From the NCBI GenBank assembly GCA_024405265.1, contig JAKSOZ010000001.1, positions 27,263 to 91,262 on the forward strand: a stretch of 64,000 nt of DNA, given 5' to 3'. This stretch comes from Kiritimatiellia bacterium (lineage in GTDB: Bacteria; Verrucomicrobiota; Kiritimatiellia; RFP12; UBA1067). Below are positions 3,952 to 59,299 of this stretch, one piece after another (within the stretch, counting starts at the first letter, position 1; the number at the start of each line of letters is the position of its first letter). The position numbers were made by a program, and so were the translations under genes. The notes under the pieces are model-generated. The model was not told the origin of the DNA and searched no databases. It was given only the letters and a program-made list of their open reading frames with translations.

Positions 3952-4115
3952 GAGGCGGGAATGATTCGTTGCTGGTGCTCGCTAAATTGCTGCGCAATTT
4001 CCAGGTAAGAAAGCCAGGTCGACATCGATTTTGCGCCTTTCATTTCAATCGGCGTCAAAATCGGGTCGCATGCAGTCTTTCTTACCTGTCGCTGTGCAGG
4101 CTAACGAATCATTCC
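3952..4115. repeat. nested inverted repeat: outer arms GAGGCGGGAATGATTCGTT / AACGAATCATTCCCGCC(CC)TC, inner arms CAGGTAAGAAAG / CTTTCTTACCTG
   Basis: read directly; arms 3952-3972 vs 4092-4115 and 3991-4002 vs 4076-4087. Confidence 0.6.
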
Positions 4116-10120: not shown

Positions 10121-10526
10121 ATCTATATTATACCGGATTTGCTTCCCTTTGTCCGGTTCCCAATTCTGCCGCGCGGTGTAATAAGATTCGGCTGGGACGG
10201 AGTGGGACCCATGCCGAATCTTCTCTTCTAAAGGCGGGTCGACTTGGCGTACGCGTAGCGTATCGCCGACAAAGACACGCAGTGTTTATTTTTTTTTGTG
10301 GATGGATATTATAAGCGCGGAGGGGTGGATGGCGAGAGGCGGCCTACATAGCGACGGCGAAGAAAGCATGCAGCGACCCGATTTCGACGCCGGTTGAAAT
10401 GAAAGGCGCGAAATCGATGTCGACCTTGCTTTCTTAGCCGGGAATCGCTTGCGATTCAGCGAGTATCGCCGCCCCTCGCCATCAACCCCGTAGCGCTGAA
10501 TGCTTGGATGTGGTATAATATAAGGT

Positions 10527-11998: not shown

Positions 11999-12143
11999 CC
12001 AAAAGCGAGGCGTTTGCGAAGCTGATATATCTTAATTTGGCTTTATGTCCGGCGATAGCCGATTCTATGGATGTCGGCATAGCCGACCTGCGGTTAAGTA
12101 GTTCATCCCTAACTCGTCCCTAATCCCCAGCCCCTAAATCTCA

Positions 12144-12193
12144 CTTTCTTCCTTTCCATTCTTGCCGCGGAAGCGGCAAATTTGGTATAATAT
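12144..12193 (+). promoter_or_regulatory. portable promoter module copy 1: CTTTCTTCCTTTCCATTC-TTGCCGCGGAAGCGGCAA-ATTTGGTATAATAT
   Basis: near-identical copies at 26547-26598 and 59300-59350; contains perfect hairpin TTGCCGC/GCGGCAA in -35 position and extended -10. Confidence 0.6.
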
Positions 12194-12204
12194 AAATCTA
12201 AAAA

Positions 12205-13136
12205 TGAAGATTTCGCTCATAACGGTTTGCTGGAATAGTGCCGCGGTGATTAGGACCGCGCTCGACTCCGTCTTCGCCCAGTCAACTCCCGCCGATCTTG
12301 AAATCGAATACATTGTCGTCGACGGCGGCTCGACGGACGGAACGGTGGAGATTTTGAAGGAATACGCTACTCGTCCTGTGCCCGAGCATCGTATGCTCGG
12401 GTCAACCCCTATCTCCTTCCGATACATCTCGGAACGTGATGCCGGGATGTATGACGCCCTGAATAAGGGCATTAGGATGTCCACGGGAGAGGTGATCGGG
12501 TGGCTCAATGCCGATGATGTTCTTGCCGCGGATGATGTGCTCGCGAAAGTGGCGGCCGCTTTCGAGGCGAATCCCGACATCGACGGCACCTACGCCGACA
12601 TCCGTTTTGTTAAGCCCCTAGTGAAGGGCAGTGATGAGCCCGAAACGAGCGGAAGTCCGAGCGAAGGGATACCCGGATTGGAGCGCAGCGGAAATAGGCG
12701 TAGCCCGCGGTATTCCGCCGAGGGGCTCCCTGAGGAGGAGCTTCCGGCGTTGAGGGCGTTGCCCACGCTTCGCTATTGCTCCGGCAAGCATTTCCGCCCC
12801 TGGATGTTCCGCTTCGGCACCCAGACGGCGCATCCCTCGACCTTCTTCCGCCGCTCCGCATTCGATCGCTGGGGCTTTTACTCGCTCGACTACGGCATGT
12901 TCGGCGACTTCGAGCTTCTCTGCCGCTTTATCTGGCGCCATCGCGCGAAAATGCGCTACCTCCCGTTCTGTACGACGGTCATGCGCTCCGGCGGCGCTTC
13001 AACGAACGGCTGGCGCACGACCTTAAAGATCAATCGCACGGACCTCCGCGCTCTTAACGCAAACGGCTGCTACTCGAATCTCCTCTTCCTCTACTCCCGC
13101 TACTTCTTCAAAATTTGGGGCTTCCTCTTTAAATAA
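12205..13136 (+). CDS. glycosyltransferase family 2
   Basis: ISLITVCWNSAAVIRTALDSVFAQ...VVDGGSTDGT...LNADD motifs. Confidence 0.7.
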
Positions 13137-13213: not shown

Positions 13214-13258
13214 GGCGAAAAGTCAATTCTAGTGTTTTATAAAACGTTAGAATTGACT
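13214..13258. promoter_or_regulatory. 40-bp AT-rich palindrome AGTCAATTCTA-N-TTTTATAAAAC-N-TAGAATTGACT (copy 1 of 3)
   Basis: near-identical copies at 14093-14137 and 14163-14207 flank the two-wHTH regulator gene. Confidence 0.55.
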
Positions 13259-13275: not shown

Positions 13276-14070
13276 TTATGCCTCTTCTTCGTCAGGGGAG
13301 GGTGGTTGAGTGTCCGGGGCGGGTTTGGGTTTGATGATGACAGGGCCGGTTTCTCGCCAATTTTGCCGCGGATTGCCTTCCGCGCGATTGACTTTTTTGA
13401 GGACGGCCTTCGTCTCTTTGTCGGTCGCGCGCCCCGTACCTTCGTTGTAGTAATACGCATGACTCGCCGCGTTGCCAAGCGTCAGATCGAGTAAAGTTGC
13501 GGCGATTTTGTCAGTGGGCCTCACGAGCTCGAAAGTTGAGGGGCCGTGATATGTGCGCGTTTCGTGGATGAGTCCCGCAGCTTGCAAAAAGCCGAGATGA
13601 TGATAAATCGACTTCACGCAAACTCCCATCGCAGCGTAAAGTTCGTTCAAATATGCCGGGCCTTGGGCGAGGCGAATCAGAATCGCCAGGCGGTTAAAGT
13701 GAGTGAAGGCGCGAAGGGTGGTCATGATCGACTCTTCCCACTTGGGCGGCAGCTCCGCGGCAAAATAGGTGGCGAAGGCTTTTTGGAGTTCGATCGAATC
13801 GGGAAGCGAGCGGTCCTGCTCGTCATTGTAGTAGACTTTGATGCGATCTCGCTTTACGCCGATGAGACCGCGTGCATTCAGTTGACGGAGAGAAATACTC
13901 GCGGTGGCATCGGAAATGCTGAGGATGCGGGCATAGTCTCGCACGCAAAGTGCGCCTTCATTTTGAATGGCGAGGCGAAGCACATTGAGTCTTGTCGCGT
14001 TCATCAACGCGCGGCAGGTGCGCCATAAAGTCGGCTTCAGTTTTTTCTCATCGTTCATGATGAAAATCAT
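13276..14070 (-). CDS. transcriptional regulator with two tandem ArsR/SmtB-like winged-HTH domains
   Basis: two repeats of the ArsR-type HTH pattern (RLNVLRLAIQNEGALCVRDYARILSIS... and FNRLAILIRLAQGPAYLNELYAAMGV...). Confidence 0.55.
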   Translation of the reverse strand: MIFIMNDEKKLKPTLWRTCRALMNATRLNVLRLAIQNEGALCVRDYARILSISDATASISLRQLNARGLIGVKRDRIKVYYNDEQDRSLPDSIELQKAFATYFAAELPPKWEESIMTTLRAFTHFNRLAILIRLAQGPAYLNELYAAMGVCVKSIYHHLGFLQAAGLIHETRTYHGPSTFELVRPTDKIAATLLDLTLGNAASHAYYYNEGTGRATDKETKAVLKKVNRAEGNPRQNWRETGPVIIKPKPAPDTQPPSPDEEEA

Positions 14071-14092
14071 TCTACCATATTACCGGTCGAGA

Positions 14093-14207
14093 AGTCAATT
14101 CTAAAGTTTTATAAAACATTAGAATCGACTTCGGGAAAGAGGAGATGGGCAAATACGGTTGACAGATTCTAAAGTTTTTAAAAACGTTAGAATCGACTTC
14201 GGAGGAG
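14093..14207. promoter_or_regulatory. two further copies of the 40-bp palindrome upstream of the regulator gene
   Basis: 14093-14137 and 14163-14207, read directly. Confidence 0.55.
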
Positions 14208-19232: not shown

Positions 19233-20035
19233 TGGCAAAGGCAAAAGTCCCTGCGGCATATTATGTGCGCGAATGGTACGAGAAGTCTGAGATTGATTAT
19301 TTCAGCGCTTTTGTAAAGGCCTATATCCCGTTTAATGCTTGGATGAATGATCATTTTAAAGGTGAGGCAACAGATCGTGCCATGCTTGAGCGGGTAAAGA
19401 GCGATGCGAATACATTTCGACAAAAGATACTTACTCTGCTTGAACTTGAAGATACGGCTGGCTATGAGTTCCGTGGAGCGATAGGATCGTTGCACGGAGC
19501 ATTAGAAGAGTCTACTGTTGCAAATAGCGGAGAGAAGATATCGTTTCAGAATGTAGTTATCTGTAAGAATTCTATTACGAATGTTAATCAGTCGTATCAT
19601 GGGTTGCAATATAGCGCAAAATATGATCAGTCGACGGGTGCGACTACTGTTGAAGTTAAAGAAAATAAGTCCGGAAAGATCTTGGTGGCGTTGTCGGAAC
19701 CCGGGTATCCGACCGAAGATACCGTTATAAAAAATCCTAGTGTTAATGCCTTGAACCAGAGCCGACTGGATTACTTGTTGGGTGTTTATCGACAGGTAAA
19801 TCCTAGGAAGGAAGAATCGTTGCTATATCAAGGTCGGAAGAAGAAAGAAGGGATAGTTTGTGGTGCATATAAAATGATAAAAGAAGAAAAGAAGCTGGCA
19901 GCTGGTCTTATTGAAATTTTATACAGTCTGCGAAATGCTTTATTTCATGGCGTTATTGATCCGAACAAAGATGCGAATAAGGTCTACGGCGCGGCATATC
20001 GGATTATGCATACATTGGTCGGAGCATTGACATGA
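19232..20035 (+). CDS. hypothetical protein co-transcribed with the RM genes
   Basis: ATG overlaps S-subunit stop (TAATG); no motif. Confidence 0.45.
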   Translation: MAKAKVPAAYYVREWYEKSEIDYFSAFVKAYIPFNAWMNDHFKGEATDRAMLERVKSDANTFRQKILTLLELEDTAGYEFRGAIGSLHGALEESTVANSGEKISFQNVVICKNSITNVNQSYHGLQYSAKYDQSTGATTVEVKENKSGKILVALSEPGYPTEDTVIKNPSVNALNQSRLDYLLGVYRQVNPRKEESLLYQGRKKKEGIVCGAYKMIKEEKKLAAGLIEILYSLRNALFHGVIDPNKDANKVYGAAYRIMHTLVGALT

Positions 20036-20195
20036 ACGATTCGGGGTTTGATGAGTAAAAACAATAAGGGGTAATTAATGACTGCCAACCGTCGGATATT
20101 CCTGAACATATTGCCACATGCGGGTGTTCTCTGTATGCGTTGGCAAGTTGTTTTGGACGGCGATAGGTGCGGAATGTGCGGAATTTTGGTATAAT

Positions 20196-20345
20196 ATGAA
20201 GCGTAATTTGAGTGTGAGAATGAGACAGAATCGACTTGGGCGTGGTGTCCGGCGCGGACGCGACGGCGAAGGGTCTTTGCGTCGTTCGCGCGATACCTAT
20301 GCTCTCCGTCCTATGCACTGGGGCTTGTCTCTCCTGGGTTTATAA
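20196..20345 (+). promoter_or_regulatory. conserved ~150-nt transcribed leader following TGGTATAAT (copy 1)
   Basis: nucleotide homology to 24941-25075 that does not preserve a reading frame; shares GCACTGGGG(C/T) motif also at 27078-27098. Confidence 0.4.
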
Positions 20346-20360
20346 ACTTGACATAAGCAA

Positions 20361-21410
20361 ATGACAAAGCGGCAACATTACGTTCAGCAAGCATACCTAG
20401 AACAATGGTGTGTGGGAGGCCGATTTGCTGTTAGGATCAATGGACGTTTGTTGGAGAATCAGACTCCGTTGAATTATGCGAATGAAAGTTGGTTCTATGC
20501 TTTTGTCGATCTTTCGACTCGTGAGTTGGATTATCTCTTTCGATCATTGATGCAAGTGTTTGATTTTGACAGGCACGAACTTGCGCGGAAGATGTTTGGC
20601 GCGATTTGTTTGAATGTTCTAAGGTTTCGATGCGAGAAATCGGACTACAGTTCGGAATACGATGAGGTTTACAGCAAGATCGTTTCAGGCATCAAATTTG
20701 GCGATGAATGGGAAAAGATGTTTGCTTTTCTAAAGAAAGGCGCACAAAGAAGTGATCTCATAAGCCCGATTGAACTTGCACGATTGAAGGATCAGGCATC
20801 CGAAGGATTTGAGTCGTTTCAGTGTAACATTGAAGAAGTTGCGGCTCCGTATTTCAAGATGGCACGAGCTGGCAGCTTGTCGTTCATGAAGGACAAAGCT
20901 TCGGCGCATGCGTTGATTCTGTATTTGGTCAATCAGGCTTTTCGCGGTCCGGATTATTTGAAGGTGATAGACAAGAACCTGCCTGAAAGTATTCGAGAAG
21001 CAGGAGGGAGCGTGGAACTTGGCAAGTATATGCGGTATTTTCAGCCGATGCTTGTGGCTGCTAAGCTTGCGAGGGAGTCTGAAGAACGCAAAATGATGGT
21101 GATAAACAATGCCACTAATGTAGATTTTATTACCGGAGATGTTCCTTTGGTGATATATGGCGAACGACACTCGAATGTCCCCTGTATTATTTACTATCCT
21201 CTAACACCGCGCAAGGGATTACTTTACGGATTTAGGAGTGCGGTGAATGATTTCAACAAGAAATTTACTTCGACGCTACGTCGCGTTGACAAAGTTGATT
21301 GGTTTAATCGAGAGATCATAGCCTCGAGTATGCGAGCTGTTTTTGCGATGAAAAAAGAGACGCTACAGCATTACGGCACTGATAAGCCGCAGTGTCTGGA
21401 TCACCAATAA
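20361..21410 (+). CDS. DUF4238 domain protein
   Basis: N-terminal KRQHYVQQAYLEQW resembles the HxVPQxYLxxF signature of DUF4238. Confidence 0.55.
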   Translation: MTKRQHYVQQAYLEQWCVGGRFAVRINGRLLENQTPLNYANESWFYAFVDLSTRELDYLFRSLMQVFDFDRHELARKMFGAICLNVLRFRCEKSDYSSEYDEVYSKIVSGIKFGDEWEKMFAFLKKGAQRSDLISPIELARLKDQASEGFESFQCNIEEVAAPYFKMARAGSLSFMKDKASAHALILYLVNQAFRGPDYLKVIDKNLPESIREAGGSVELGKYMRYFQPMLVAAKLARESEERKMMVINNATNVDFITGDVPLVIYGERHSNVPCIIYYPLTPRKGLLYGFRSAVNDFNKKFTSTLRRVDKVDWFNREIIASSMRAVFAMKKETLQHYGTDKPQCLDHQ

Positions 21411-21844
21411 GAGGGATTGAATATGGAACGAAAGCATTATTACACTGACGAGCGGAATACGCAGATTGTTATTGCGTTGCTGAAGACGTATGGGATATTT
21501 CGGTTTGGTCGGAGAGAGGGGTATTCTAGGTGACCGCAAACAAGCGCATATTCTTTAACATCATTGCCACATACGGCCGATTGCGGCCTTCGGCTATTTC
21601 CGCTTCGCTCCAATCCGGGTATGCGTTGGTGATTTTTGCGGCAGGAATAAAAAGATTGCCGCATCTATTCAAATTTTGGCAAATCTGATATAATATTGCG
21701 TAGAAAATGAGTAAGACGATTACTATCGATCGCCATTGGACGCGGTGTAGATTTGCGCACCTCGTAGCGAGAGCTTTGCGCGCGGCGAACATCAACTCTA
21801 CACCTACGCCTTATTTCTACACCTAATTTACGGAGTAAATTCTT

Positions 21845-22600
21845 ATGATCAAAGTCGGTATTATCGGTTGTGGATTTGTCGGGGGCGCGCTGAAGGCGTG
21901 GCTCGAAGAGAATAACAAGGACGCGGTCATTCGCGTCAGCGATCCGCCGAAGGGGTTCAATGACGACCTCTCGGACATTGACATCGCGTTCTTGCAGATT
22001 CACGTGCCGACCGAGGACGACGGTACTCAGGATTTGACGCTCATGAAGGAACTGATTCGCAAGCTGCCGAACGTTCCGGTCTTCGTCCGTACGACGATTC
22101 TCCCGGGCACCTCGGACCTCCTCTCGCGCGAGACGGGTCATCAGGTCTGCTACATGCCGGAGTTCTTGACCGAGCGCACACACATCGAGGACTTCAAAAA
22201 GCAGACGATGGTCTTTACCGGCGCTGTCGATCTTCTGATCAAGGTCTTCCCGTCGAAGAAGTTTACGGTCATGTCCCCGCTTGAGGCCGAGATCACGAAG
22301 TATTCCCACAACGTCTTCGGCGCGTACAAGGTGACATACTTCAACGCCGTACGCGAGTACTGTGAGAAGATGGGCGCGGACTGGGCAAAGGTCCACACGG
22401 GCTGCCTCCTCTCCGGCTACATTAACGACACCCACACCTACGTCCCCGGTCCGGACGGCAAGTTCGGTTATGGCGGCAAGTGCTTCCCGAAGGACGTCAA
22501 CGCCTTTGCGAAGCTCACCGAAGACTGCTCGCTCGGTAAGCTCCTCGCTCCGCTCCATGACCTCAACGTCCACTTCCGTGGATTTGAAGAGCATATATAA
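21845..22600 (+). CDS. short UDP-glucose/GDP-mannose dehydrogenase-family protein
   Basis: N-terminal GIIGCGFVGG Rossmann motif and catalytic GGKCFPKD motif; only about 251 aa. Confidence 0.55.
   Translation: MIKVGIIGCGFVGGALKAWLEENNKDAVIRVSDPPKGFNDDLSDIDIAFLQIHVPTEDDGTQDLTLMKELIRKLPNVPVFVRTTILPGTSDLLSRETGHQVCYMPEFLTERTHIEDFKKQTMVFTGAVDLLIKVFPSKKFTVMSPLEAEITKYSHNVFGAYKVTYFNAVREYCEKMGADWAKVHTGCLLSGYINDTHTYVPGPDGKFGYGGKCFPKDVNAFAKLTEDCSLGKLLAPLHDLNVHFRGFEEHI
22541..22600 (+). repeat. direct repeat A (3' end of dehydrogenase gene), repeated at 25075-25133
   Basis: CTCCTCGC(T/C)CCGCT(C/T)CA(T/C)GA(C/A)CTCAACGTCCACTTCCGTGGATTTGA(A/G)GAGCATAT present twice. Confidence 0.8.
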
Positions 22601-22616
22601 AATTGGATTGAGAAGT

Positions 22617-24689
22617 ATGGGATCAAACGATAGCATTGTCTTAGATGGGATTCTCTCTGATCGACAAAATGCCGAAGGTTTGCCGACTGGTGAAGTTTTT
22701 GAAAAGTTCGCATTTGAGCAGATTCTTAAAGAATAGGCATTAACGGCAAATCAACTTGATCAAGGTTGGGTTGATGGCGGCGGTGATGGTGGAATTGATG
22801 GTTTTTATGTCATTATTAATGGTTATGTGTATGGGGGAGATGCTGGTTTTCAATGGCCGCGTGAGAATCCTCATATTTCAGTATGGATTTTGATATGTAA
22901 GCATAGAGAAGGTTTTATAGAGTCTCCTCTGGCGTCAATGTATATGACGCTAAGTGAGTTCTTTGATTGCACAAAATCGAATCAAGAGTTGCACGGCGAT
23001 TATTCAGAAGATTTATTAGAGGCAAGGACGATCTTTCTTCAAGCATATAATACGTTGGCTAGGCTAGATCCTTTGATTGATGTTCGCTTTGCCTATGCTA
23101 GCCGTGGTGATGCAACTAATGTCTCTGATGCCGTGGCTGGAAGAATGCAGCAACTCGAGTCTTTGGTGAGTGAGAAATTCAGCAAGGCTACTGTTTGTAG
23201 TAGTTTTGTCGGAGCGAAGGAATTACTACAGTTGTATCGGAAAGTTAGAGATGATGATTTTGTGTTGCCGTTTGTGTCGTCTTTGACGCATGATGAGAAT
23301 AATTACGTTGTAATTGCGACTCTTCGTGATTATTATAATTTTGTAAAAGATGACGAAGGCAAGTTAAGACGTTATCTATTTGACTCTAATGTTCGAGATT
23401 TCTTGGGATACAATAATGTAAATGGAGATATTGATTACACTCTAAAGAATCCCAGTGTAGCGAATTTTTGGTGGTTAAATAATGGAATCACAATTTTGGC
23501 AAATAATGCCCATGTCACAGGGCATAGCCTTCATTTGAGAACTGTTCAAATTGTCAATGGACTTCAGACAACAGAAACCTTATATCGGCACTTTGCGGGA
23601 GGAAATGTTGAGTCGTTAGACAAGAACATTCTCATAAAAATCCTTACATCGCAGGATGTTGATGTTAGGACAAATATCATTCAGGCGACTAATAACCAGA
23701 GTAACGTAATGAGTTATTCTTTGCATGCTACGGATGATGTTCAACGTAATATAGAAGATGTGTTGCGCCGCGAGAATTTCTATTATGAACGACGCGATCA
23801 TTATTATAAAAACGAGGGGATGCCTGAAGATCGCTCGATAACTCCTCTTGAATTGGCGAAGTGTTTCCTTGCTGTCGTATACTTAAATCCTGCAATAGCA
23901 TCGAAGCTGAAGAATAAATTTATGCGCAATTCGCTGTCGTACAATGCAGTCTTCAACTCTGATTTCCCTATTGATAAGTGGCCTTTTCTGGCGGCACTGT
24001 GGCTTGATGCGGGGAAAGTCTTTCGACAGGTCTACCTCAAAAAATTTGGTGATATATTGCATCCTTGGCGGCCTTTGGTGGCGTATTGTGTTGTAGCGAG
24101 AATGTTTGGTAAGCTTAATTTCTCGCTAAAAAATATTGTGACTCTCAAATTAAAGGATCTGCGCGCAGATTTGATTAGTGAGGTGTGGGAGTTTGTTGCG
24201 CCGTTTATGACAAAGTTCGAGGCATCGTCAAGGAATAAACTTAAGAAGCCACATCAAGTATATAACGTTGTCATTAAAGAGTTCGCTATGAAATATAACT
24301 TGAACGGTGTGGAGGCAGTAAATAGACGGATTCTCCAAAGGGTTGATCAATTGCCAACTCAAGGCGTTGAATTGACTGAAGATTTTATAGAGCGGGTTCG
24401 TTTGCTTTTGCCTGCTCAACCATGGAAACCTGGGATGTATCGGGATTTGTGTGCAAGATTGCAGGTTCGGCCGTCTTGCGTTTATGAAGCAATAGATGTG
24501 CTAATTGATCGCGGTATCGTACATGAGCAGAAGAATGGTGTCGTGTATGATGAAGCCGGGAATGTATTAATGGTGGATCCAACAAGGTGTAGGTTTACTG
24601 TCGCGGAGTTGAATGCGGATATTGCAAGAAGGGGGCGAGAGCATTCTTCGATTATGAAGCCTTTGCGTAAAGAGCCTCTTGTAAAATGA
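22617..24689 (+). pseudogene. AIPR (abortive-infection phage-resistance) family protein interrupted by in-frame TAG at 22734-22736
   Basis: N-terminal VDGGGDGGIDGFY and central NFWWLNNGITI...QIVNGLQTT AIPR signatures; the ORF before the TAG (FEKFAFEQILKE*) is in the same frame. Confidence 0.6.
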
Positions 24690-24928
24690 ACCAAAACAAG
24701 CGCATATTCCAAAGCGAGATAGCGACCTGTGCCAGACCGTTGTTTGCGGTTGTATACGGCGGTTAACATGAATATGACCCTTACACTTTACATTCGGTCG
24801 TGGAGGGACTTCGCTAAGGTTGTGAAGCTCCTTTCGGGCGAGGATTGGATGTTTCGGGGGCAGCGCGATAGTAATCGCCTCTTGCGGATAGGTTTAAACT
24901 AGACACTAATGTTGCTGAATTTGGTATA

Positions 24929-25133
24929 ATATATTGGGTGTAAGATGAATGTGAGAACGAGACAGAATCGACGTGGTTGTGGAGTATCGCGAGTACTCGA
25001 CGGAGAAAGGGCTTGGTTTCAATCGTCCAATCCTATGCACGCATCTTATGCATCGAGGCCTGTCCCCCTTGAACTCCTCGCCCCGCTTCACGAACTCAAC
25101 GTCCACTTCCGTGGATTTGAGGAGCATATTTGA
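24929..25133 (+). promoter_or_regulatory. leader copy 2 fused to duplicate of dehydrogenase 3' end (chimeric junction)
   Basis: 24914-25075 homologous to 20181-20330; 25075-25133 homologous to 22541-22600. Confidence 0.5.
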
Positions 25134-26465
25134 TGTCTGCAAAGTTCGTATCATTGGGGGATGTTGATGCGGCATCCAAACCGTCCTTATGGTCTCCAGA
25201 GGATGACGAGGTACGCGTTAAATTATCTAGCACGATGGTTAGCTTTGTGTCGGCTCAGACAATGCCGCTTACGATTGGCTTGGATGGAGTATGGGGTAGT
25301 GGCAAAACCTATTTCTTGCGTCGGTTTGAGACTGACTATGCGAATTCGGCTGGTTCTGGGGCATGCATTTATCTAAACGCGTGGGAGCGGGATTTTCTCC
25401 ACGATCCTTTACTATATCTTTTCTACGGGTTAGATGAATTCGTTACGCGAAATCCAGACTATGCCTCGATTGATGACTTTAGTTGGGATGTGTGCAAGAA
25501 GAATCTTGTGGCTATTGCGAAGGGTAGCTTATCGGCCGTATTGCACGTTGCAACTAATGGCGCATCAGACAAAGTTATGGAAGGGATTGATGCGTGCTCA
25601 AATTCGATAGACAAACATCCGCTTAGCTTGTATCGCGAACAAACGCATTCAGTCGATACAATTAAAGGGTACCTAACAAAACTTGGTAATAAGGTACGTG
25701 AATCAACTGAACATAGTCTTTGTTCTTGGCCTAGATTTTGTTCAACTTGGGAAATCAATTCAGTCATTGTACGGGGAGATTGATACCGGGAATTATCTTC
25801 ATCGAATGATACAGTATCGATTCTCTCTGAGTGCTCTTCCGATTGACATGTTTGTCAGGACGATAGCAGAGCGAGATGCGATAAACACGCTTGTTTGGAA
25901 GTCGAAACCTAGATATCCTAATGAGCCGACATCAAATGATACTTTGGCGTTCAAGGTGTTCTGCTGGTTTGCCAAATTCTACGGGATATCTCTTCGTCAG
26001 ATTGAGCGGGCTATCGGGTTTTATCGAATGTCTGTAGTGTCTCCTCATCAATCCTCTTTGGCGATGGCGGTTTTTGCTATGACAAGTGTTTTGAAGGTAC
26101 ATGGGAATGGACTTGATAAGTTGCTGGTCGATGTTTCTGCAGAGGAATCTATAGTAGCCGATATACTTGACGAAAAAGGTTCTTCGAATAAACAAGATAG
26201 CAGTTGCATAAGGGAATTCCTGACTTATCTGATTAAAGCCTCCCGATGCACCGGCAGTGAGTCGGCAGAAAGGTTATATGGGGAATATCGTTCGCGCTAT
26301 CAGTTGTCTAAAGCGCGGCAGCCTGTCGATGATGCCTTTGGTCCGATGACCGTAGAGCTTTTGCTTAGGGCGTTTTATGCAGAGTTTGATAATGAATACA
26401 TTGATTTTGGAGATTCTCTCGTTAATATTGCAACGAGATGCATAAATTTGCAATGTGTCGTGTGA
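25133..26465 (+). pseudogene. KAP-family P-loop NTPase with frameshift near 25690-25715
   Basis: Walker A GLDGVWGSGKTYFL; ORFs 25130..25783 and 25683..26465 overlap by 100 nt in different frames. Confidence 0.5.
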
Positions 26466-26546
26466 TTATATAGGCTTCTCGAATACAATGGAGAAACCTT
26501 GCTGCGCGGTGTGATCATCTCTCCGACCGTAAGAGCGGCGGAATCA

Positions 26547-26598
26547 AACTTTCTTCCTTTCCATTCTTGCCGCAGAAGCGGGAAATATGGTATAATAT
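26547..26598 (+). promoter_or_regulatory. portable promoter module copy 2 (palindrome variant TTGCCGCAGAAGCGGGAA)
   Basis: aligned by eye with 12144-12193. Confidence 0.55.
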
Positions 26599-26620
26599 CT
26601 ATGTAGAAACGAGGTGCGAA

Positions 26621-27025
26621 ATGGAAGAAAGAAAACTGTATAACGAATGCGCTAATTGCTGGTGCTTCAAGAATAAACGGTGTGATGGCCGCTACCATAA
26701 TGTCGAGGAAATCAAGGCTGAAGATGGCTCGATCATTGAGTCGAGTTCTTTCTCGCTTGGCGATATGAATTGTGAGTGGCCTGGTGACGGGGAATGCGCG
26801 AAGCGTCTTGTTACGGTTGAAGATGGGTGTATCTATCTCAACTATGCCGACCAATATCCGATTCGCATGCTTTCCACTTTCACTAAGAACGAGATGGCTG
26901 AGTTTATGGTTCATCTTACGGGGAAGACCTGGTACTCGATCTTTCTTCAGCGTGTGTTTGTGCGCCGTGTGTTTGAATTAAAGGGTTGGTCGCCAACGAT
27001 TGAGCTTGACATTTCGCGAATGTGA
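26621..27025 (+). CDS. Cys-rich hypothetical protein
   Basis: 134 aa, CxxC pairs near N-terminus; GAGG 9 nt upstream of ATG. Confidence 0.45.
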   Translation: MEERKLYNECANCWCFKNKRCDGRYHNVEEIKAEDGSIIESSSFSLGDMNCEWPGDGECAKRLVTVEDGCIYLNYADQYPIRMLSTFTKNEMAEFMVHLTGKTWYSIFLQRVFVRRVFELKGWSPTIELDISRM

Positions 27026-27134
27026 GCAGAAACGCATGGACGGAGACTAGGAGGATTTGTATCATTTGCGAGATCCCTCGCACTGGGGTCTATCGCTTAC
27101 GAATTCTATTTTTGATGCTGAGGTGTAGCAGTGG

Positions 27135-28844
27135 ATGAGCCGAAGAAAACTATCAAAGAATAAGCAGGCGGCTATTGATAAACGTTTGCTTAACGGGGCT
27201 CGGGGCAAGCTTGTGTCTTGCCTTGCACGCATTTTGCCGCAAGCAGAGAAGCTTCTGAAAAAGCCAATTAAGGAGACGCCTATTCATGACGTTTGGCTTG
27301 AACGAGAGGCGAACGAGAAGTCAACACTCGCAACGCTGCATGAAGCGTTAAGGCGTAAGCCCGTCATACAACCGCCGAAATGGGGCTTTAATCTTCAGAA
27401 GGTTGCATTGCCGGATAAAGGGGTTGTGAAGAGGTCGTATTTCTCAGGTTTGAAATGGCCGATTCTAGAACAGGCATCTGAACACGTTATTCACCTGAAA
27501 TCTGGATCGATTGGAGTGCTGGTGGTTGATCTTCGAGCAGAATCATCAGATTACCAGAGGTATACATTTGTGCGACTCACGGAAAAGAAGTCGACTTTGA
27601 TGTTGATACCAGAAGGTTGTGCATTTGCCTATTATGGACTTGCCCGATTCTCAAAGATTGAGCTCCGTGGTCGTAGTAAGGGAGAATTTCAGTTTCTAAA
27701 GGCTCTTGATGTCCTTGATCCTTCCCTAGGGATTGATCGAATAGACGGGGTGCCTACGAAAGTGTTGAATGATAATCGAAAGAGTTTCGCAAGATTCGAG
27801 ACGTTGACGCCTTGGGACTCGCGAATCAGCCATCGGGTGCTGACGCGCGGCGAACGAATGATTATTAACGCGATGGATGTCGCGAGTGATCGCGAGTATC
27901 AGATTAAACCCAAGGGGGTTGAATTTGTTTTTGATGAGTCTTGCGACCGTGGAGTGTTGCATGTTCGTGAGTATTCGGCTTTTATTCAAGTCCTCGGTAA
28001 GTTGAAATATTTATTTGCTGGCGCTGATAAGGCGCGCGGTGCAAGAATGGGAATCGCTTTCCGAGGGCAGGTTATGGGATATGGAGATCATATGATACCA
28101 TCTCTGTATCGGGGCGTTAAGACAGATAAAGAACGGAAGCGGCGTGAAAGCCATCTTTCGGAGAAGATCAAACGAGCGGTGGGGTATTTTGACCAGCTCA
28201 AGAAGTTGGATGATAGCGTTGTCGAGGCGTTGTTTCAGCAGTATGGGGTTGATACGAGTTGGATTGATGCTGTTGATAATGTGTGGATCGCTCTTTGGTT
28301 TGCTTGCCATCGAGCGGAATGTTGTCTTCAGGGGCGCTCGGTTCATTACGTGCGCCGCGATCCAAACAAAGAGTGTCCAAACGTTAGATATGCGTATATT
28401 GTGGTGTTTGGATACCCAGATTCGGTGTTGTCAGGAACCCGTAAATCTAGGCTCGGCCCTGGTCATGTTTTGAAAGACGGAGTTGAGTATATAGATCTCC
28501 GTCTGGCGGTGCCGTCTCAATTTGTACGTCCCCATGCGCAGCACGGGCTTATGCTAAGGCAATATTCGGATAAAAGGGAGCCGAAAACTGATTACCGAGA
28601 GTTGGTGCAGGCAATCATTCGTATTGATTTAGTGGATGCTCTTCGATGGTTGGGGTCCGGTGAGGCCGTTTCATTTGGGGCTTTGTTTCCACCGCCAGTA
28701 CACGACGCTGGTTTCCAAGGACTTCTTCGGATGGAGGATAGGACAAAGCTTAAGCACTCCGATATGTATTCCGAACTTAAGGTAAAAGAAGCTGGTGGGG
28801 AACATGAGTATAAGTCATTAAGTTTTCAGAGGTTTGATATATAG
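27135..28844 (+). CDS. FRG-domain protein
   Basis: FRGQ...IPSLYR signature about residue 300; 569 aa. Confidence 0.55.
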   Translation: MSRRKLSKNKQAAIDKRLLNGARGKLVSCLARILPQAEKLLKKPIKETPIHDVWLEREANEKSTLATLHEALRRKPVIQPPKWGFNLQKVALPDKGVVKRSYFSGLKWPILEQASEHVIHLKSGSIGVLVVDLRAESSDYQRYTFVRLTEKKSTLMLIPEGCAFAYYGLARFSKIELRGRSKGEFQFLKALDVLDPSLGIDRIDGVPTKVLNDNRKSFARFETLTPWDSRISHRVLTRGERMIINAMDVASDREYQIKPKGVEFVFDESCDRGVLHVREYSAFIQVLGKLKYLFAGADKARGARMGIAFRGQVMGYGDHMIPSLYRGVKTDKERKRRESHLSEKIKRAVGYFDQLKKLDDSVVEALFQQYGVDTSWIDAVDNVWIALWFACHRAECCLQGRSVHYVRRDPNKECPNVRYAYIVVFGYPDSVLSGTRKSRLGPGHVLKDGVEYIDLRLAVPSQFVRPHAQHGLMLRQYSDKREPKTDYRELVQAIIRIDLVDALRWLGSGEAVSFGALFPPPVHDAGFQGLLRMEDRTKLKHSDMYSELKVKEAGGEHEYKSLSFQRFDI

Positions 28845-30221: not shown

Positions 30222-31457
30222 ATGAAAGTCATTCTTTCAACAGGACATGGGCGACTTCATCTTGTGCAATCAGCAACTTGGTTGCGTAAGTTGGGGTTGA
30301 ATGTTAGAGTTTTAACGGGATGGATTCCGAAACATCCGGATGGATTACTAGTTAAGTTGGCCTCGAAAATTGTTCGTCGCGATTTAACTTCCGGGATGAA
30401 GAAGCGCCTTGTTCCCGAACTTGAAGGATGTGTTAGGACATGTCCTTTAGCGGAGTCTCTTGACACTCTTTTGCGAGTAGCATGTCGAATCTTAAAGATA
30501 TCTACCCATCGAGTGTCTTCGATAGGCTGGACAATCTTCGGCCTTGCGAGTCGCAAGTATCTAAAGGATGCAGACATCTTTCATTGCCGTTCAGGTGCAG
30601 GACAGGGTGGTGCGATTAAACTCGCACGGAACCGTGGGATGAAGATTTTGGTTGATCACAGTTGCCTTCATCCGGCTAAATGCGAGGAGAATCTCAAGGA
30701 TGACTACGCGCGTTGGGGGCAGGAGATTGTCATTGCTCCCGGTCGAGGCGTTTGGAAGAACGTACTTAAAGATTGCGAAGATGCTGATATGATTATGGTC
30801 AATGCGAATCATATTCGTGATTCGTTTGTTGAGCAGGGGTACGCGCCGGAGAAGGTTAGAGTTGTTTATTTGGGTGTACGGGAAGATTTTCAGGGCGTGA
30901 AGAAGAACTACGCGAGCCATGGAACTTTTAGGGTTCTTTTTACAGGTGGATTTATTATTCTTAAAGGCGCGGAGTATCTTCTCGAGTCGCTTAAGATATT
31001 GAAAGAACGTGGGGTTGATGTTGCGTATGATGTGATCGGCTCGGTCGGTGCTCCAAAAGCATTGCTCGAAAAGTATAGCAATCTTCCGTTTAAATTTTAT
31101 GGTGTTTTACCGCAAGATAATTTGAAGTCTCATCTCGCAAATGCGGATGCGTATCTCTTCCCTTCACTTGCCGATGGTTGCGCACAAAGCGGAATGGAAG
31201 CATTAACGGCGGGTCTTCCGGTTGTGGCGACTTATCAAAGCGGGCTTCCGATAACGGATGGTGAGAATGGATGTGTGGTGCCGATGAAGGATGCCATGGC
31301 AATTGCCGATAAAATCGAGTGGTTGATTGCACATCCAGAAGAGCGAGAGAGGTTGGGTAAGTCTGCTGCAAAGATGATGAGAGAAAAATATACATGGCGG
31401 CATTATGCGGAGAATGTTCGAGACCTCTACGAGGAACTTGTAGAGAGTGGGAGTTGA
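30222..31457 (+). CDS. glycosyltransferase family 4 (GT-B, group 1)
   Basis: C-terminal pattern FPSLADGCAQSGMEALTAGLPVV typical of GT4 (ExxxxxxE variant). Confidence 0.65.
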   Translation: MKVILSTGHGRLHLVQSATWLRKLGLNVRVLTGWIPKHPDGLLVKLASKIVRRDLTSGMKKRLVPELEGCVRTCPLAESLDTLLRVACRILKISTHRVSSIGWTIFGLASRKYLKDADIFHCRSGAGQGGAIKLARNRGMKILVDHSCLHPAKCEENLKDDYARWGQEIVIAPGRGVWKNVLKDCEDADMIMVNANHIRDSFVEQGYAPEKVRVVYLGVREDFQGVKKNYASHGTFRVLFTGGFIILKGAEYLLESLKILKERGVDVAYDVIGSVGAPKALLEKYSNLPFKFYGVLPQDNLKSHLANADAYLFPSLADGCAQSGMEALTAGLPVVATYQSGLPITDGENGCVVPMKDAMAIADKIEWLIAHPEERERLGKSAAKMMREKYTWRHYAENVRDLYEELVESGS

Positions 31458-31479
31458 AAGTTGGAGTGGGAGAATGGTG

Positions 31480-32547
31480 AAGAAACATTATTATTTGTTA
31501 GACGTGCTAAGAGCACTGGAAATGCTCGCAGTGGTAAGGGGCCATTATCGTAATGTGCTTTTCCCTTCATGGAGCGAGGTTGCGCATTCCTCAAGAGGGG
31601 GGGGGGTACAGCTCCTCTATGCCCTTACGAGGTGGGGGCACAGCGCTGTTATCGTCTTCTTTGTGTTGAGTGGATTTTTGGTCGGAGGTAAATCAATCGA
31701 GAGGGCCATGCGAAATCAGTTTGACATAATCGGATACGCAAAGAATCGATGCGAGCGGATTTTCCCTCCGCTTGCATTGATGTGCTTTCTTGTGCCGGTT
31801 ACGTTTCTTAGCCTTGGCGTTCCTGTACCGTGGGGTTCGGTTTTGGGTAATCTTTTTTCTTTGCAAGGACTTTGCTGCCAGTCGTTGCTCGGCCCTTGGT
31901 GGGCGCTTTCGGTTGAAGTCTGGTTCTATGTTTGGTGTGGCGCGGCGTTAGGTGCATGGCGTGCGAAGGGGGGGCTCCGATTCCTATGCGCTGGGATCCT
32001 GGCGCTAATGAGCTTCATCTTCATTCGTGGATCGATTTGGTTCTTGCTAATATGGCTACTCGGCGCGGCAACTTATTTCGTTTTGCCGCGGACGAAGAAT
32101 ATCTGGCGATTGCTGGGATCGTTTGTCGCCTGCGCGGCGCTTGCAGTCGTTGGCTCGCGAACAACAACAAACGCTCAAATTGCTGATTTCTTTTTAGGGG
32201 TTGGCTTGTGCTTGATTGTTCGCGAGGTCGTGATGTGGGAGCCGAGCGGCTTAATTTCCAGGACGGCAAATAAGCTCGGAACGTGGTTGTCTGCTCCGTC
32301 GTATTCGATTTATCTTTCTCATATGCTGGTTATGATTGTCTTTGCGAACCTGTTCTTAACTCCAGCGGCAAGTGCGACTGTGGATCGTGAGTATATGGTT
32401 CAAGAAGGAATCCTTGCTGCATTTACGAAGGTCGGTGCACTTGAAATCGGTGCATTGATTGGTTCGTTGGTGCTTGCAATTGTTTTCGGTTATCTCGTGT
32501 ATCTTGTTGCGGAAAAGCCTTGGTGGAAAAGGCGAGTGGAAGTCTGA
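31480..32547 (+). CDS. acyltransferase family 3 (O-acyltransferase) membrane protein; contains G11 tract at 31593-31603
   Basis: N-terminal LDVLRALEMLAVV and multi-TM architecture of the OafA/acyltransferase_3 family; homopolymer read directly. Confidence 0.6.
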   Translation, partial: KKHYYLLDVLRALEMLAVVRGHYRNVLFPSWSEVAHSSRGGGVQLLYALTRWGHSAVIVFFVLSGFLVGGKSIERAMRNQFDIIGYAKNRCERIFPPLALMCFLVPVTFLSLGVPVPWGSVLGNLFSLQGLCCQSLLGPWWALSVEVWFYVWCGAALGAWRAKGGLRFLCAGILALMSFIFIRGSIWFLLIWLLGAATYFVLPRTKNIWRLLGSFVACAALAVVGSRTTTNAQIADFFLGVGLCLIVREVVMWEPSGLISRTANKLGTWLSAPSYSIYLSHMLVMIVFANLFLTPAASATVDREYMVQEGILAAFTKVGALEIGALIGSLVLAIVFGYLVYLVAEKPWWKRRVEV

Positions 32548-32566
32548 AGTTGGAGTGGGAGAATAT

Positions 32567-33439: not shown

Positions 33440-34821
33440 TGAGCTTTGAGGTACGCCGAGTTTCAAACGGACCAAAGCACCACCTCTTTGGATTCCACGA
33501 TCTTCCGATAACAAACGCCAGGGGGGATTTAGCGTTATCGTTGGAAGTCGACGATATATCCCACCCTCCATTGCCCGGAGAGTCTTGCGCTGCGGGAGTT
33601 ATTGATCTGGCGACTGGTGCGTTCAAGAAGCTTCACGAGACGCATACTTGGAACTATCCGCAGGGGGCGCGGCAGCAGTGGATCGGCGATACGGATCTTT
33701 GCGTGTGCAACGATCGTGCGGAGGATGGGACGCTGATCTCGCGTATCTACAACGCGCGGACGGGTGAGAAGGTTGATACGCTGCCTTTCCCCGTACAATG
33801 TGTCCAAGCGGAGAAGCAACTTGCCTTCTATCAGAACTTTGACCGTTTGCATGGAGTCGGTGGGTATGGTTATGTCGGCGGTGAATTACCAAAGAAGCTC
33901 GTTGATTTGCCGGAGGATGATGGACTTTGGGTTGGCGATCTAGAGACCAAAGAGAAGAAGCTCCTTCTTTCGATGGTTGAGATAGTGGCTTGCGGGGAGA
34001 CGAAACCGGTTAAGACCGGATATCCTCATTACATTACGCATGGCATGCTTAACCCCAGCGGTACGCGACTCGCTTTCTTGCATCAATATCGTGTTCCGGA
34101 TGGCGGTGACATCGCGCGAATCCTGGCGTGTGATTTGGACGGTAAGAATCTTCGGTGTCTCGGGAAGGGATTCTTGAGCCACTACACTTGGATTGACGAC
34201 GAAACCATCTTCACATGGGGAGAGGATCAACACGCACTATCGGCTTTTCGTGAGGCGGCATGGCTTCGCATCCCGGGCGTCCTCCAACTTGCGCTTCTCG
34301 CGAAGAAATGCATGCGCTGTGCTCGCTCACTTAAGTCACTTCTTAAACATCAAACCTCAAACATCAAGCCTCAAACTAAACCGCAAGGTAAAGCGTTCCT
34401 CCTGTTGAAGGATTGTGATCCGGTCATTCAAACGAAAGTCGCCATTGGAATTCTGACAGAAGACGGGCATCCGATGTCTAATCCGAAGAATCCGCATCTT
34501 GTTGTGAACGATACGTATCCGAATAAGGAAGGGGATCGTTGGCTCATGTTTTATGATGTAGATAAAAACGAGCGCACCAATGTCGGACAATTCCGTCGCC
34601 TTTTCAAGGAGCCGGATGTTAAGACATTCGACTGGCGAAAGTCGATGGAGGGTGTCGATCCTCGGGTTTGTGCGAAATTTCCTCGCGACCTTTATCTCTT
34701 TACGCGTTCCGGTTACCATACAGACCTCCACCCCCGCTGGTCGTACGACGGCAAGACGGCCTTTTTTGACTCTATTCACGAAGGGACTCGACAGATTTAT
34801 GCGGTTGACTATTCATGCTGA
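33439..34821 (+). CDS. hypothetical protein (possibly beta-propeller); contains in-frame short tandem repeat block 34337-34385
   Basis: 460-aa ORF; no confident motif. Confidence 0.4.
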   Translation: MSFEVRRVSNGPKHHLFGFHDLPITNARGDLALSLEVDDISHPPLPGESCAAGVIDLATGAFKKLHETHTWNYPQGARQQWIGDTDLCVCNDRAEDGTLISRIYNARTGEKVDTLPFPVQCVQAEKQLAFYQNFDRLHGVGGYGYVGGELPKKLVDLPEDDGLWVGDLETKEKKLLLSMVEIVACGETKPVKTGYPHYITHGMLNPSGTRLAFLHQYRVPDGGDIARILACDLDGKNLRCLGKGFLSHYTWIDDETIFTWGEDQHALSAFREAAWLRIPGVLQLALLAKKCMRCARSLKSLLKHQTSNIKPQTKPQGKAFLLLKDCDPVIQTKVAIGILTEDGHPMSNPKNPHLVVNDTYPNKEGDRWLMFYDVDKNERTNVGQFRRLFKEPDVKTFDWRKSMEGVDPRVCAKFPRDLYLFTRSGYHTDLHPRWSYDGKTAFFDSIHEGTRQIYAVDYSC

Positions 34822-36629: not shown

Positions 36630-37573
36630 TTACGCTTTTTCAATATTATCGCATTGCGGCGGCGTTTCTGATTGTGATGATTCATCAGCAATTCTGGAAG
36701 CCGTGCGCTTTCATCAACGGACTTGAGGGCTGTGCTGTGCCGCTCTTTGCTTGCATGGCCGGTTACCTCTACAAGGGAGGCCTCCTCAAGAAAGTGCCGC
36801 GGGTCATCATCCCGTACCTTATCTGGGCGGTCATTTACTTCGTAGCGAACAATGTTGTTCTTGATGTGTTCGTTCGCCACGAGTCCTTTGAGTTCCCAGG
36901 CCTGAAGTCTTGGCTACTCGGTGGTACGGCGTGTCACCTTTGGTTCCTACCGAGTCTGTTCGCGGCGTTTGCCGCGGCAGAGGGTTTGATGCGTGTGAGA
37001 TGTTTGAGGGGTTCCGAACCCACTAACCCACTAACCTCAATAACCCCTAACCTCATCCTTCTTGCTTTAGGAATTGCGTCACAGTGGCTCCCCGGCGAGA
37101 CTTCGGAAACTTTCCTCGGTTACTGCCGCATCTACTTCGGTCGACTCCTCCTCTTCTTCTCCCTTGGCGGTTTGATTCGAACACTAACATCAAACATCAA
37201 ACATCAAACCTCAAACTTGCCACGCATAACTATCAAAATAATGGGGGGGGGCGCAATTATGCTCGGTTTGGCTAATCTTGCGCTTCGTTTCATCCCCGGC
37301 CTTGCATTTCAGCCGCTTCTTCTCATAATCGGCTTGATGCTTTTGGCGGTCGGCTTCGGCGAGTTTACTCTCCCGAAGTTTGTCGGAAATCTCGCCAATG
37401 CGACGATGGGTATCTACCTTGTTCATGTTCTCTTTACCTCCGCTGCAAATGTGGTCCTGGCGAAGCTTGGACACGCGGCATTACCGGCATTTGCCGCCTT
37501 GCCTATTATCGCAGGTATTTTCCTTTGTTGCTATTTCGTCGTACGATTCATGCCGAAGAGGATGAAAGGATAA
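36626..37573 (+). CDS. acyltransferase-3-like membrane protein carrying two repeat blocks and a G9 tract (37243-37251)
   Basis: multi-TM; repeats 37019-37055 and 37186-37222 and the homopolymer are read directly. Confidence 0.5.
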   Translation: MITLFQYYRIAAAFLIVMIHQQFWKPCAFINGLEGCAVPLFACMAGYLYKGGLLKKVPRVIIPYLIWAVIYFVANNVVLDVFVRHESFEFPGLKSWLLGGTACHLWFLPSLFAAFAAAEGLMRVRCLRGSEPTNPLTSITPNLILLALGIASQWLPGETSETFLGYCRIYFGRLLLFFSLGGLIRTLTSNIKHQTSNLPRITIKIMGGGAIMLGLANLALRFIPGLAFQPLLLIIGLMLLAVGFGEFTLPKFVGNLANATMGIYLVHVLFTSAANVVLAKLGHAALPAFAALPIIAGIFLCCYFVVRFMPKRMKG

Positions 37574-59291: not shown

Positions 59292-59299
59292 GGCATAAG

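Follow-up and report, generated by a model that had tools for sequence, protein, structure and literature searches.

Classical leader peptides belong to single operons and sense an amino acid or an antibiotic. In polysaccharide loci, leader systems include the JUMPstart/ops element with RfaH, the UpxY-dependent leaders, the LoaP leaders, and the EAR RNA. Among repeated intergenic elements, the Correia repeat enclosed elements (CREE) of Neisseria can provide a neighbouring gene with a promoter and a transcribed hairpin (PMC2649163; reviewed in PMC2229807), and the pneumococcal BOX elements consist of conserved end modules with a variable middle (PMC3049150). Here we describe a repeated leader module of about 145 bases, which occurs three times (copies A, B, and C) before defence genes in a 64,000-nucleotide stretch of contig JAKSOZ010000001.1 from a Kiritimatiellia bacterium (assembly GCA_024405265.1; the whole stretch is called the window). 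The three occurrences are members of a lineage-specific module family of defence islands in uncultured Kiritimatiellia. With about even confidence, judged from sequence features, the module would be a portable expression unit that combines a promoter with a near-leaderless, bridging upstream open reading frame (uORF) and that also provides homology for the exchange of defence cassettes.

On the best-supported reading, the module would thus be a coupled uORF in its working, a promoter-bearing modular intergenic repeat in its look, and integron-like in the alternation of its arrays. Like coupled uORFs or leader ORFs with leaderless initiation, it carries a start codon at the position where the leaderless genes of this genome start, followed by a short ORF whose sequence seems unimportant. 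As in coupled uORFs, the stop codon overlaps the next start or lies a few tens of nucleotides from it (TGATG, ATGA, GTGA), and the downstream genes mostly lack a Shine-Dalgarno sequence. Unlike in classical leader peptides, the uORF is here part of a repeated, portable module that stands before unrelated genes and contains conserved blocks and a hairpin; its translation is predicted. The module shares with the Correia and BOX elements the nature of a lineage-specific, repeated intergenic unit of 100-170 nt, being modular as BOX is and carrying a promoter and a hairpin as CREE do. It differs from both in having neither terminal inverted repeats nor target duplications, in being always co-oriented and so far found only before defence cassettes, and in possessing a start codon and an open frame.

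The resemblance to integron arrays lies in a conserved element of about 150 bp that alternates with single genes or small operons, many of them for defence, and in a cassette that differs between strains at the same junction. In contrast to integrons, no integrase was found among the scanned window ORFs or the Pfam matches listed for the contigs L021-L026, the element lies 5' of its cassette with its own promoter, and there is no end-to-end hairpin. The antitermination leaders of polysaccharide loci are likewise promoter-proximal, transcribed, conserved sequences with a hairpin, and the window is also a polysaccharide-biosynthesis region. However, no NusG-like gene was present among the scanned window ORFs, no sequence or Rfam similarity to those leaders was seen, and the element precedes inserted defence genes rather than glycosyltransferase operons.

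The repeated module and its family

Copies A and B are both full-length and lie on the plus strand at 20203-20347 and 24940-25082, where the covariance model R1 scored 138 bits (E = 4e-33) and 144.6 bits (E = 1e-34), respectively. Blastn aligned them with 72% identity over 167 nt (20173-20336 with 24908-25071, E = 1.6e-21), and a repeat search gave an ungapped match of 73% over 95 nt (20194-20288 with 24931-25025). The 22-mer GTGAGAAYGAGACAGAATCGAC occurs exactly twice in the window, in A and in B, against an expectation of 0. An earlier note on this DNA had reported A and B as two aligning copies of a leader element, and this repeat was borne out at 72-73% identity; the similarity, however, starts about 25 nt further upstream than the note had it, so that it takes in the TTTGGTATAATAT promoter. 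The shift of reading frame that the note had seen between the two copies was also confirmed, as two 1-nt indels lie in the 3' half and the 3' block is read in all three frames across the family.

Copy C (27011-27112, plus strand) is degenerate: the hairpin H1 is absent, a dedicated promoter is missing, and the 5' block is incomplete. The core of C, taken alone, amounts to a 9-mer plus a few bases and is not significant, because about 68 chance 9-mer matches are expected in 64 kb. Copy C becomes significant because the family from other contigs supplies a profile and a covariance model. Indeed, when R1 was built without C, it recovered this copy as its third-best window match (19.2 bits, E = 0.0015), and nhmmer gave an E value of 3.9e-4. 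Accordingly, the third occurrence, which had been suspected near the FRG gene from the core sequence, proved to be a genuine if degenerate copy.

Copies elsewhere were reached by comparing the plus-frame ORF of copy B with 1.84 billion representative proteins in phmmer and then running a profile search. These searches returned seven small "proteins" (P0023-P0029), which are gene calls over homologous DNA, and their contigs were then searched with the nhmmer profile and the covariance model. Ten further copies were obtained on five other metagenomic contigs: one variant on L021/L022/L023, two copies on L024, six on L025, and one on L026. L025 is a 13.6-kb defence island with all of its six copies in that short space, and one of them, at L025:5251, is partial and promoter-less. 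The family consequently comprises 12 strong copies and C, in agreement with the proposal that a single conserved family of leader elements precedes defence genes, and it has homologs well outside the window.

All 13 copies share the orientation of the downstream gene, and each stands 0-105 nt upstream of a different defence gene or operon. The systems behind them are DUF4238, KAP/PDC-S20, FRG/PDC-S15 (twice), PDC-M48, DRT UG5-nitrilase, PDC-S73 followed by an Old-family gene, a Schlafen-AlbA2/HTH protein, a PRTase with an ORC/CDC6-like ATPase, and a 457-aa gene with DUF4325. In the DRT locus (L024, 831-4152), leader copies flank the DRT-type reverse transcriptase on both sides (UG5-nitrilase, PADLOC E = 4e-133), and the ORF of the upstream copy overlaps the reverse transcriptase start by ATGA. 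A retron- or DRT-associated non-coding RNA was considered as the identity of the element and was rejected, because only L024 has a reverse transcriptase and the other copies precede unrelated systems.

Exact-core scans with GAGAANGAGACAGAATCGAC over the GTDB representative genomes and the JGI metagenome contigs gave only chance matches with unrelated flanks. IMG/VR contained no match to the exact core or to the 3' or 5' block patterns, blastn against plasmids and phages returned nothing relevant, and a literature search on Kiritimatiellae and defence systems turned up nothing relevant and no description of the module. The element was not found upstream of the DUF4238 homologs of five relatives (67-85% identity) or upstream of a KAP homolog (86% identity). 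In three of the five relatives, DUF4238 is preceded by a partner gene of about 165 aa, and in the relative L018 an intact ugd directly abuts the KAP gene. Since these homologs lack the element, the module is not tied to either gene and was placed before the DUF4238 and KAP genes recently.

Several other leaders were tried as members of the family. The leaders after the promoters at 21684 (ugd), 5237, and 59338, together with the spacer before KAP in L017, were not supported by shuffle-tested local alignments, nhmmer, or the covariance model. Of these, the candidate leader at 59358-59485 gave a marginal match to the family model (E = 0.15-0.26), the ugd leader gave E = 4.4, and the leader at 5237 showed no similarity.

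According to the alignments, the parts of the module follow in the order of promoter, start codon, 5' block, H1 with GACGG, a variable GC-rich middle, and 3' block. The promoter TGnTATAAT is present in 8 of 8 promoter-bearing copies, with variable flanking bases and an invariant TATAAT. This extended -10 sequence lies on the plus strand at 20187-20195 in copy A (TGGTATAAT) and, by motif scan, at 24922-24930 in copy B, and the start codon follows 12-15 nt past TATAAT. The 5' block is conserved and purine-rich, with the core GAGACA, and exists in two versions: type 1, GTGAGAACGAGACAGAATCGA, and type 2, ATGAAGCAGACGGTTGAGACAAYGCGC, the latter in promoter-less copies. In copy A it is GTGAGAATGAGACAGAATCGAC (20214-20235, plus strand), which is the same as in B at 21 of 22 specified bases and is kept in all type-1 copies.

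Hairpin H1 of copy A (20241-20265, plus strand) consists of 9 bp with an internal G/G mismatch and the loop GGCGC, and is followed by a near-invariant GACGG. That of copy B (24978-25002, plus strand) is the GAGUAU/GUACUC version, with compensatory changes relative to A. The GC-rich middle varies, and two copies carry unrelated hairpins in its place. One or two repeats of CCTATGCAC (or AACCCCACCA) then lead to the 3' block, which occupies 20310-20337 in copy A (CCTATGCACTGGGGCTTGTCTCTCCTGG) and 25045-25073 in copy B, both on the plus strand and placed by alignment. Its family consensus is TATGCACTGGGGTCTGTCCCTCTTGG, and the forms written for the family are TATGCACTGGGGTCTGTCCC and CACTGGGGTCTGTCCCTCTTGG. 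The promoter-less copies, namely the type-2 copies, copy C, and the partial copy L025:5251, sit between two cistrons.

Bridging open reading frame and predicted coupling

The ORF of copy A (20208-20345, plus strand) begins with TTG 12 nt after TATAAT, has 45 codons, and stops 15 nt before the ATG of the DUF4238 gene. In copy B, the ORF (24945-25133, plus strand) begins with ATG 14 nt after TATAAT and runs for 62 codons, in frame, into a ugd tail, where its TGA overlaps the KAP ATG (TGATG). Across copy C, an ORF on the plus strand at 27022-27138 was read from the sequence, in which frame 1 is open over 27010-27138; its GTG overlaps the stop of a 152-aa ORF (GTGA), and its TGA overlaps the FRG ATG (ATGA).

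None of the 11 complete copies has a stop in the frame set by the start codon; the other two frames contain 25 and 8 stops. The plus strand carries 10 stop triplets where dinucleotide shuffles predict 25.7, a 2.5-fold depletion, and the corresponding numbers for the minus strand are 22 and 27.3. In seven of the eight copies with a called downstream start, the distances from the stop to the next start are -4, -1, 5, 7, 15, 35, and 39 nt. The stop of the partial copy L025:5251 lies 1 nt before the next start, and tandem copies on L025 are joined by an ATGA overlap. Furthermore, three independent junctions show the ORF joined without a frame change to a displaced gene's tail, whose stop codon then closes the ORF. 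These tails derive from ugd in copies B and D, which differ there by a frame-keeping 12-nt indel, from a UDP-glucuronate decarboxylase gene at L025:10874-11236 (phmmer against PDB, E = 3.6e-11), and from the DUF4238 partner gene in L024.

Substitutions fall at codon positions 1, 2, and 3 in numbers of 10/17/15 across the family and 8/10/7 between A and B. The element is therefore no conserved peptide, as the earlier note had held. The same note had named small ORFs that are both translated and conserved as proteins as evidence against its proposal; from their layout the ORFs are probably translated, and they are not conserved as proteins.

The ATG or TTG of the module stands in an initiation-competent position, where the leaderless genes of the genome start. 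Sites resembling the extended -10 sequence TTTGGTATAATAT number 16 in the window against 1.4 expected. Of the 15 TGnTATAAT sites on the plus strand, seven (4175, 10511, 10820, 12183, 14536, 40090, and 46561) are followed at 7-12 nt by the ATG of a gene of 85-461 codons. Because these seven long genes start 7-12 nt after the same promoter motif, leaderless or near-leaderless mRNAs appear to be the rule in this Kiritimatiellia genome. Another five of the 15 sites are followed by short ORFs at 8-14 nt, and in three cases (A, B, and the ugd leader) the short ORF stops shortly ahead of a long gene.

Promoter-proximal short ORFs outside the family were observed at 21707-21826 (39 codons), 55700-55780 (26), and 59357-59443 (28), upstream of ugd, a GT2 gene, and a lipoprotein gene, respectively. 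The gap between the first of these and the called ugd start is about 18 nt. The ORFs at 55700 and 59357 are read as likewise ending before a long gene, and that at 55700-55780 looks like a stump of the 5' end of a GT2 glycosyltransferase gene.

A promoter combined with an open ORF that ends at the next start points to transcription with translational coupling. In such a scheme, RNA polymerase would start at the module promoter, and ribosomes would start at the promoter-proximal codon and translate an ORF of 42-120 codons whose amino-acid sequence would be irrelevant. The ribosomes would reach the stop of this ORF either at the defence gene's start codon or no more than about 40 nt from it, and that gene, usually without a Shine-Dalgarno sequence, would be translated by termination-reinitiation. 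The promoter-less copies (type 2, C, and L025:5251) would play an equal role between two cistrons, and ongoing translation of the leader would protect against premature termination. Finally, the conserved module would offer homology for recombination, through which the downstream cassette would be swapped and the copies would become mosaics. A possible role for H1 and the conserved blocks is the tuning of expression rate.

Several points weigh against this scheme. Five copies were found via ORF calls in the very frame in question, so that the open-frame count is biased, which leaves just five complete copies free of the bias (A, L025:1010, L025:6412, L025:10864, and L024:831). With 52-68% GC, the element is stop-poor in all frames, and base composition could in part account for an ORF that reaches the AT-rich region before the gene. 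Because the copies share their descent, the counts are not independent. The start codon of copy A is TTG, not ATG, and in L025:1010, if ATG 1159 is the start of the downstream gene, the ORF would extend about 65 nt into it. Moreover, translation leaves unexplained the strong nucleotide conservation of the 5' and 3' blocks and the covarying H1, which suggests an additional function of these parts at the RNA or DNA level.

Hairpin H1, mosaic copies, and alternative readings

In the alignment of H1, 88.7% of cells are paired, compared with 39-59% in slid controls. Its covariation score is 0.344 against 0.21, and 0 of 500 shuffles reach the observed score; this covariation comes from essentially two haplotypes, with few independent lineages. 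Because many of its pairs are G.U, H1 is assigned to the plus-strand RNA. The consensus fold of the 13 sequences (RNAalifold) contains 12 pairs at -6.9 kcal/mol and retains only H1 and a mini-hairpin of 3 bp. The consensus fold of A and B was no better than column shuffles, of which 65 of 500 reached the observed energy and 77 of 500 the compensatory count. Single-sequence folding z-scores were unremarkable (-1.5 to +1.3), and the minimum free energy folds differ between copies. Consequently, the covariation analysis that the earlier note had proposed upheld H1 and revealed no conserved multi-helix structure.

Three structural candidates were rejected. The long-range helix P1, formed by 5' GACAGA with 3' UCUGUC, pairs at 12-13 of 13 positions in the L025:6412/10864 subtype, at 7 of 13 in B and D, and at 3-5 of 13 in the type-2 copies as aligned; it is good in one subtype only. 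A second hairpin, H2, is found in most copies in differing registers and is not alignable. Binding of an Arg-rich peptide to its own hairpin in the manner of lambda N/boxB was discarded, as the type-2 copies do not encode an Arg-rich N-terminus and this stretch is conserved as nucleotide sequence.

The copies are mosaics, because their segment-wise identities are incongruent: B and D are 100% identical in the 5' block and 64% in H1, whereas H1 of B is 89-93% identical to the type-2 copies and H1 of D is 86% identical to A. The left junctions from the wzx stump to the promoter and from the end of the FRG cassette to the promoter are shared by the window and L023/L025, where the genes that follow differ. 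Ordinary gene stumps form the cassette boundaries, a sign of homologous or illegitimate rather than site-specific recombination; recombination at the module would be the route of exchange.

Other explanations can be weighed against the portable expression module. A structured cis-regulatory leader RNA, in which H1 and the blocks would bind a protein or small ligand or switch pairings and so set the transcription elongation, stability, or translation of all the defence cassettes jointly, for example upon phage infection, seems rather unlikely to us as the primary function. It would account well for H1, whose covarying pairs (AU with UG/CG, and AU with CG) and many G.U pairs fit plus-strand RNA only, and for the 5' core GAGACA and the 3' block, which are conserved as nucleotides though they are read in different frames. 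The near-complete GACAGA/UCUGUC pairing in the L025:6412/10864 subtype also includes pairing-improving changes at two positions. Reading of the alignment adds a C-G to U-A change in L024:831 and shows that GGGG of the 3' block can pair with an upstream CCUA/CCCC repeat or a downstream UCCC. However, the small consensus fold, the A and B fold within the range of shuffles, the ordinary z-scores, and the poor long-range pairing in B, D, and the type-2 copies do not fit such an RNA; nor do the replacement of the middle by unrelated hairpins in two copies, the absence of H1 from C, and the origin of the covariation in two haplotypes. As for an expression platform, no terminator-like site follows the elements, with a weak match inside copy A only, and the sequences downstream of the copies are unrelated to one another. 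In the window only a tRNA passes the Rfam gathering threshold, nothing relevant appears at E<=5 in 19900-27300, and there is nothing at E<=1 in L021, L024, L025, or L026. From the original proposal of cis-regulatory RNA leaders, a covarying hairpin in plus-strand RNA thus survives, and a riboswitch-like or globally structured RNA is not supported.

The module might instead be a functionless relic, consisting of a promoter and the decayed 5' end of an ancestral gene that has been copied passively by illegitimate or homologous recombination, which we consider doubtful. The region is indeed a patchwork of stumps (three of wzx, one of FRG, a ugd tail, and an inverted glycosyltransferase piece), other window promoters also lead into stump ORFs such as the GT2 5' end at 55700-55780, decay is also visible in two of the window genes downstream of leaders, and the absence of codon-position bias and the degenerate or partial copies C and L025:5251 would be expected of debris. 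Against this, the two blocks and H1 are kept while the rest falls to about 60% identity or is replaced, promoter-less copies are retained between cistrons, stop triplets are depleted on the plus strand and not on the minus strand, and six copies on a single 13.6-kb island, each exactly before a cassette, show more order than passive debris. The alternation of element and cassette in L025, L024, and the window would also suit an element of mobile or site-specific recombination, be it a promoter-bearing repeat of the MITE type or an attC-like boundary of an integron-like array, as would the conserved ends with a variable middle, like those of BOX (PMC3049150), the promoter, which CREE can also carry (PMC2649163), and the imperfect inverted motifs GAGACAGA and TCTGTCCC near the two ends. 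We nevertheless judge this very unlikely: in the four copies tested, no terminal inverted repeat exceeded 8-14 imperfect bases and none recurred consistently, no target-site duplication was seen, homology extends past the putative ends into shared flanking gene stumps, and the orientation relative to the downstream gene is identical in all 13 copies. A Pfam scan of about 58 window ORFs detected no integrase, recombinase, or transposase domain, no integrase or recombinase was among the Pfam matches listed for the genes called on L021-L026, and the stumps at the cassette boundaries are not precise sites. An attC-like end-to-end hairpin was not apparent either, the pairing between the 5' and 3' parts being 3-13 of 13 and inconsistent between copies, although no search aimed at core sites was made. 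Least credible of all is a small protein gene with an Arg-rich peptide (MNVRTRQNR...) as its functional product. All complete copies keep this ORF open, several assemblies list it as a gene (P0023-P0029), and the N-terminus MxVRxRxNR is similar among type-1 copies; but the substitutions show no excess at third positions, the C-terminal two thirds are read in three frames across copies, the type-2 N-terminus differs, and the N-terminal conservation without synonymous variation is of the nucleotide kind. The peptide has no Pfam match, and the phmmer search of the 1.84 billion representative proteins yielded just two matches, each an ORF called on this very DNA element.

A broader version of the portable expression module can be put forward tentatively, and we think it improbable in full. 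The module would then be the stop-free adaptor of a recombinase-free, integron-like system of capture and expression, which would supply any incoming gene with a promoter and a ribosome hand-off in an organism whose translation begins mainly at mRNA 5' ends, homology for the gain, loss, and shuffling of defence cassettes, and, through H1 and the blocks, a common and possibly phage-responsive control of a dozen defence systems. The portable module bears on the expression of horizontally acquired defence genes in new hosts and on the assembly of defence islands. In a phylum that has been little studied, the presence of one module before ten or more unrelated systems suggests a solution that is both simple and general (promoter, near-leaderless start, and coupling), and it also suggests cassette exchange by homology without an integrase. 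If H1 and the blocks are a shared regulatory site, this would speak for co-regulation of the whole defence island via a cis element. In addition, the covariance model of the module is a possible marker for new defence genes in Kiritimatiellia metagenomes, and the design of promoter and uORF is a possible expression tool for bacteria of the PVC group.

Gene context and other repeats of the window

The window, whose MAG includes the NCBI proteins MCQ2367410 and MCQ2367427, is a polysaccharide-biosynthesis region (glycosyltransferases, Wzy, acyltransferases, and pyruvyl transferase) into which defence genes are inserted. Around the leaders, the order is a type I methylase with its specificity subunit, a 267-aa protein, copy A, DUF4238, ugd, AbiU/AIPR, copy B, KAP NTPase, the 152-aa ORF, copy C, FRG protein, and Wzy. 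All three genes downstream of the leaders are on the plus strand: the DUF4238 gene at 20361-21410 (Pfam PF14022, E = 6e-12), the PDC-S20-like KAP NTPase gene at 25133-26465, and the PDC-S15-like FRG-domain gene at 27135-28844, the latter two assigned by domain and defence-model scans. The ugd gene is a short UDP-glucose dehydrogenase gene between DUF4238 and AbiU/AIPR.

Two of the defence genes, AbiU/AIPR and the KAP NTPase, look inactivated. In the AbiU/AIPR gene (22618-24689), the coding sequence for a typical AIPR N-terminus is followed by an in-frame TAG at 22735-22737. The KAP NTPase gene (25133-26465) shows a frameshift and a loss of 31 residues relative to its 86%-identical homolog, including the region of the DELD motif, which is taken to be Walker B. 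In the FRG protein (27135-28844, 569 aa), residues 103-201 also match a segment of dTDP-4-dehydrorhamnose epimerase; the protein would either contain a fused remnant of a sugar-nucleotide gene or arise by reading through such a remnant.

Gene remnants accompany these cassettes. The ugd 3'-end remnant fused to copy B (25051-25133, plus strand) is 81% identical over 81 nt to 22516-22596 (E = 1.4e-14), the ugd-like part of the leader that aligns there being 25051-25129. A stump of the FRG gene lies at 24729-24902, and the repeat search also revealed an inverted fragment of a glycosyltransferase gene. Three wzx-like 5' remnants begin at 20078, 21530, and 24686 and extend over 20078-20172, 21530-21580, and 24686-24766; similar stumps were seen at the loci L014, L015, L017, L019, L020, and L023. 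This stump of about 35 codons (MTxNxRIFLNIxATYGR...) stands after several defence cassettes, has an equal extent in several contigs, and is often joined to the preceding stop by an ATGA overlap. It is read as the 5' end of a wzx-like flippase gene and may be the right-hand homology arm of cassette exchange.

Other repeats were observed apart from the leader family. A second repeated intergenic module at 12137-12207, 26542-26612, and 59294-59364, and also at about 1860-1925 of the locus L018, contains the hairpin TTGCCGCGGAAGCGGCAA, with ACTTTCTTCCTTTCCATTC before it and a TATAAT promoter directly after it. It looks like a terminator-plus-promoter unit and is kept downstream of the KAP gene in a relative. 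An inverted repeat of 76 nt, 89% complementary (3994-4069 and 10373-10448), surrounds a low-GC segment of 6.3 kb with genes for a PLD/NgoFVII-like nuclease, a NERD protein, and a T5orf172/DUF4268 protein; this segment may be an invertible or transposon-like defence islet. A palindromic sequence of 43 nt (AAGTCAATTCTA...TAGAATTGACT) occurs three times (13216-13258, 14088-14130, and 14156-14198) and flanks an ArsR-type HTH gene on the minus strand (13276-14070), of which the palindromes are probably the operators. Finally, short repeats lie between or at the ends of polysaccharide genes at 31445-31475 and 32534-32564, at 34323-34376 and 37177-37216, and at 39116-39168 and 39584-39636; their types are GAGTGGGAGTTGAAAGTTGGAGTGGGAGAAT, CATCAAAC-type runs, and GTGTAGAACGT-type runs.

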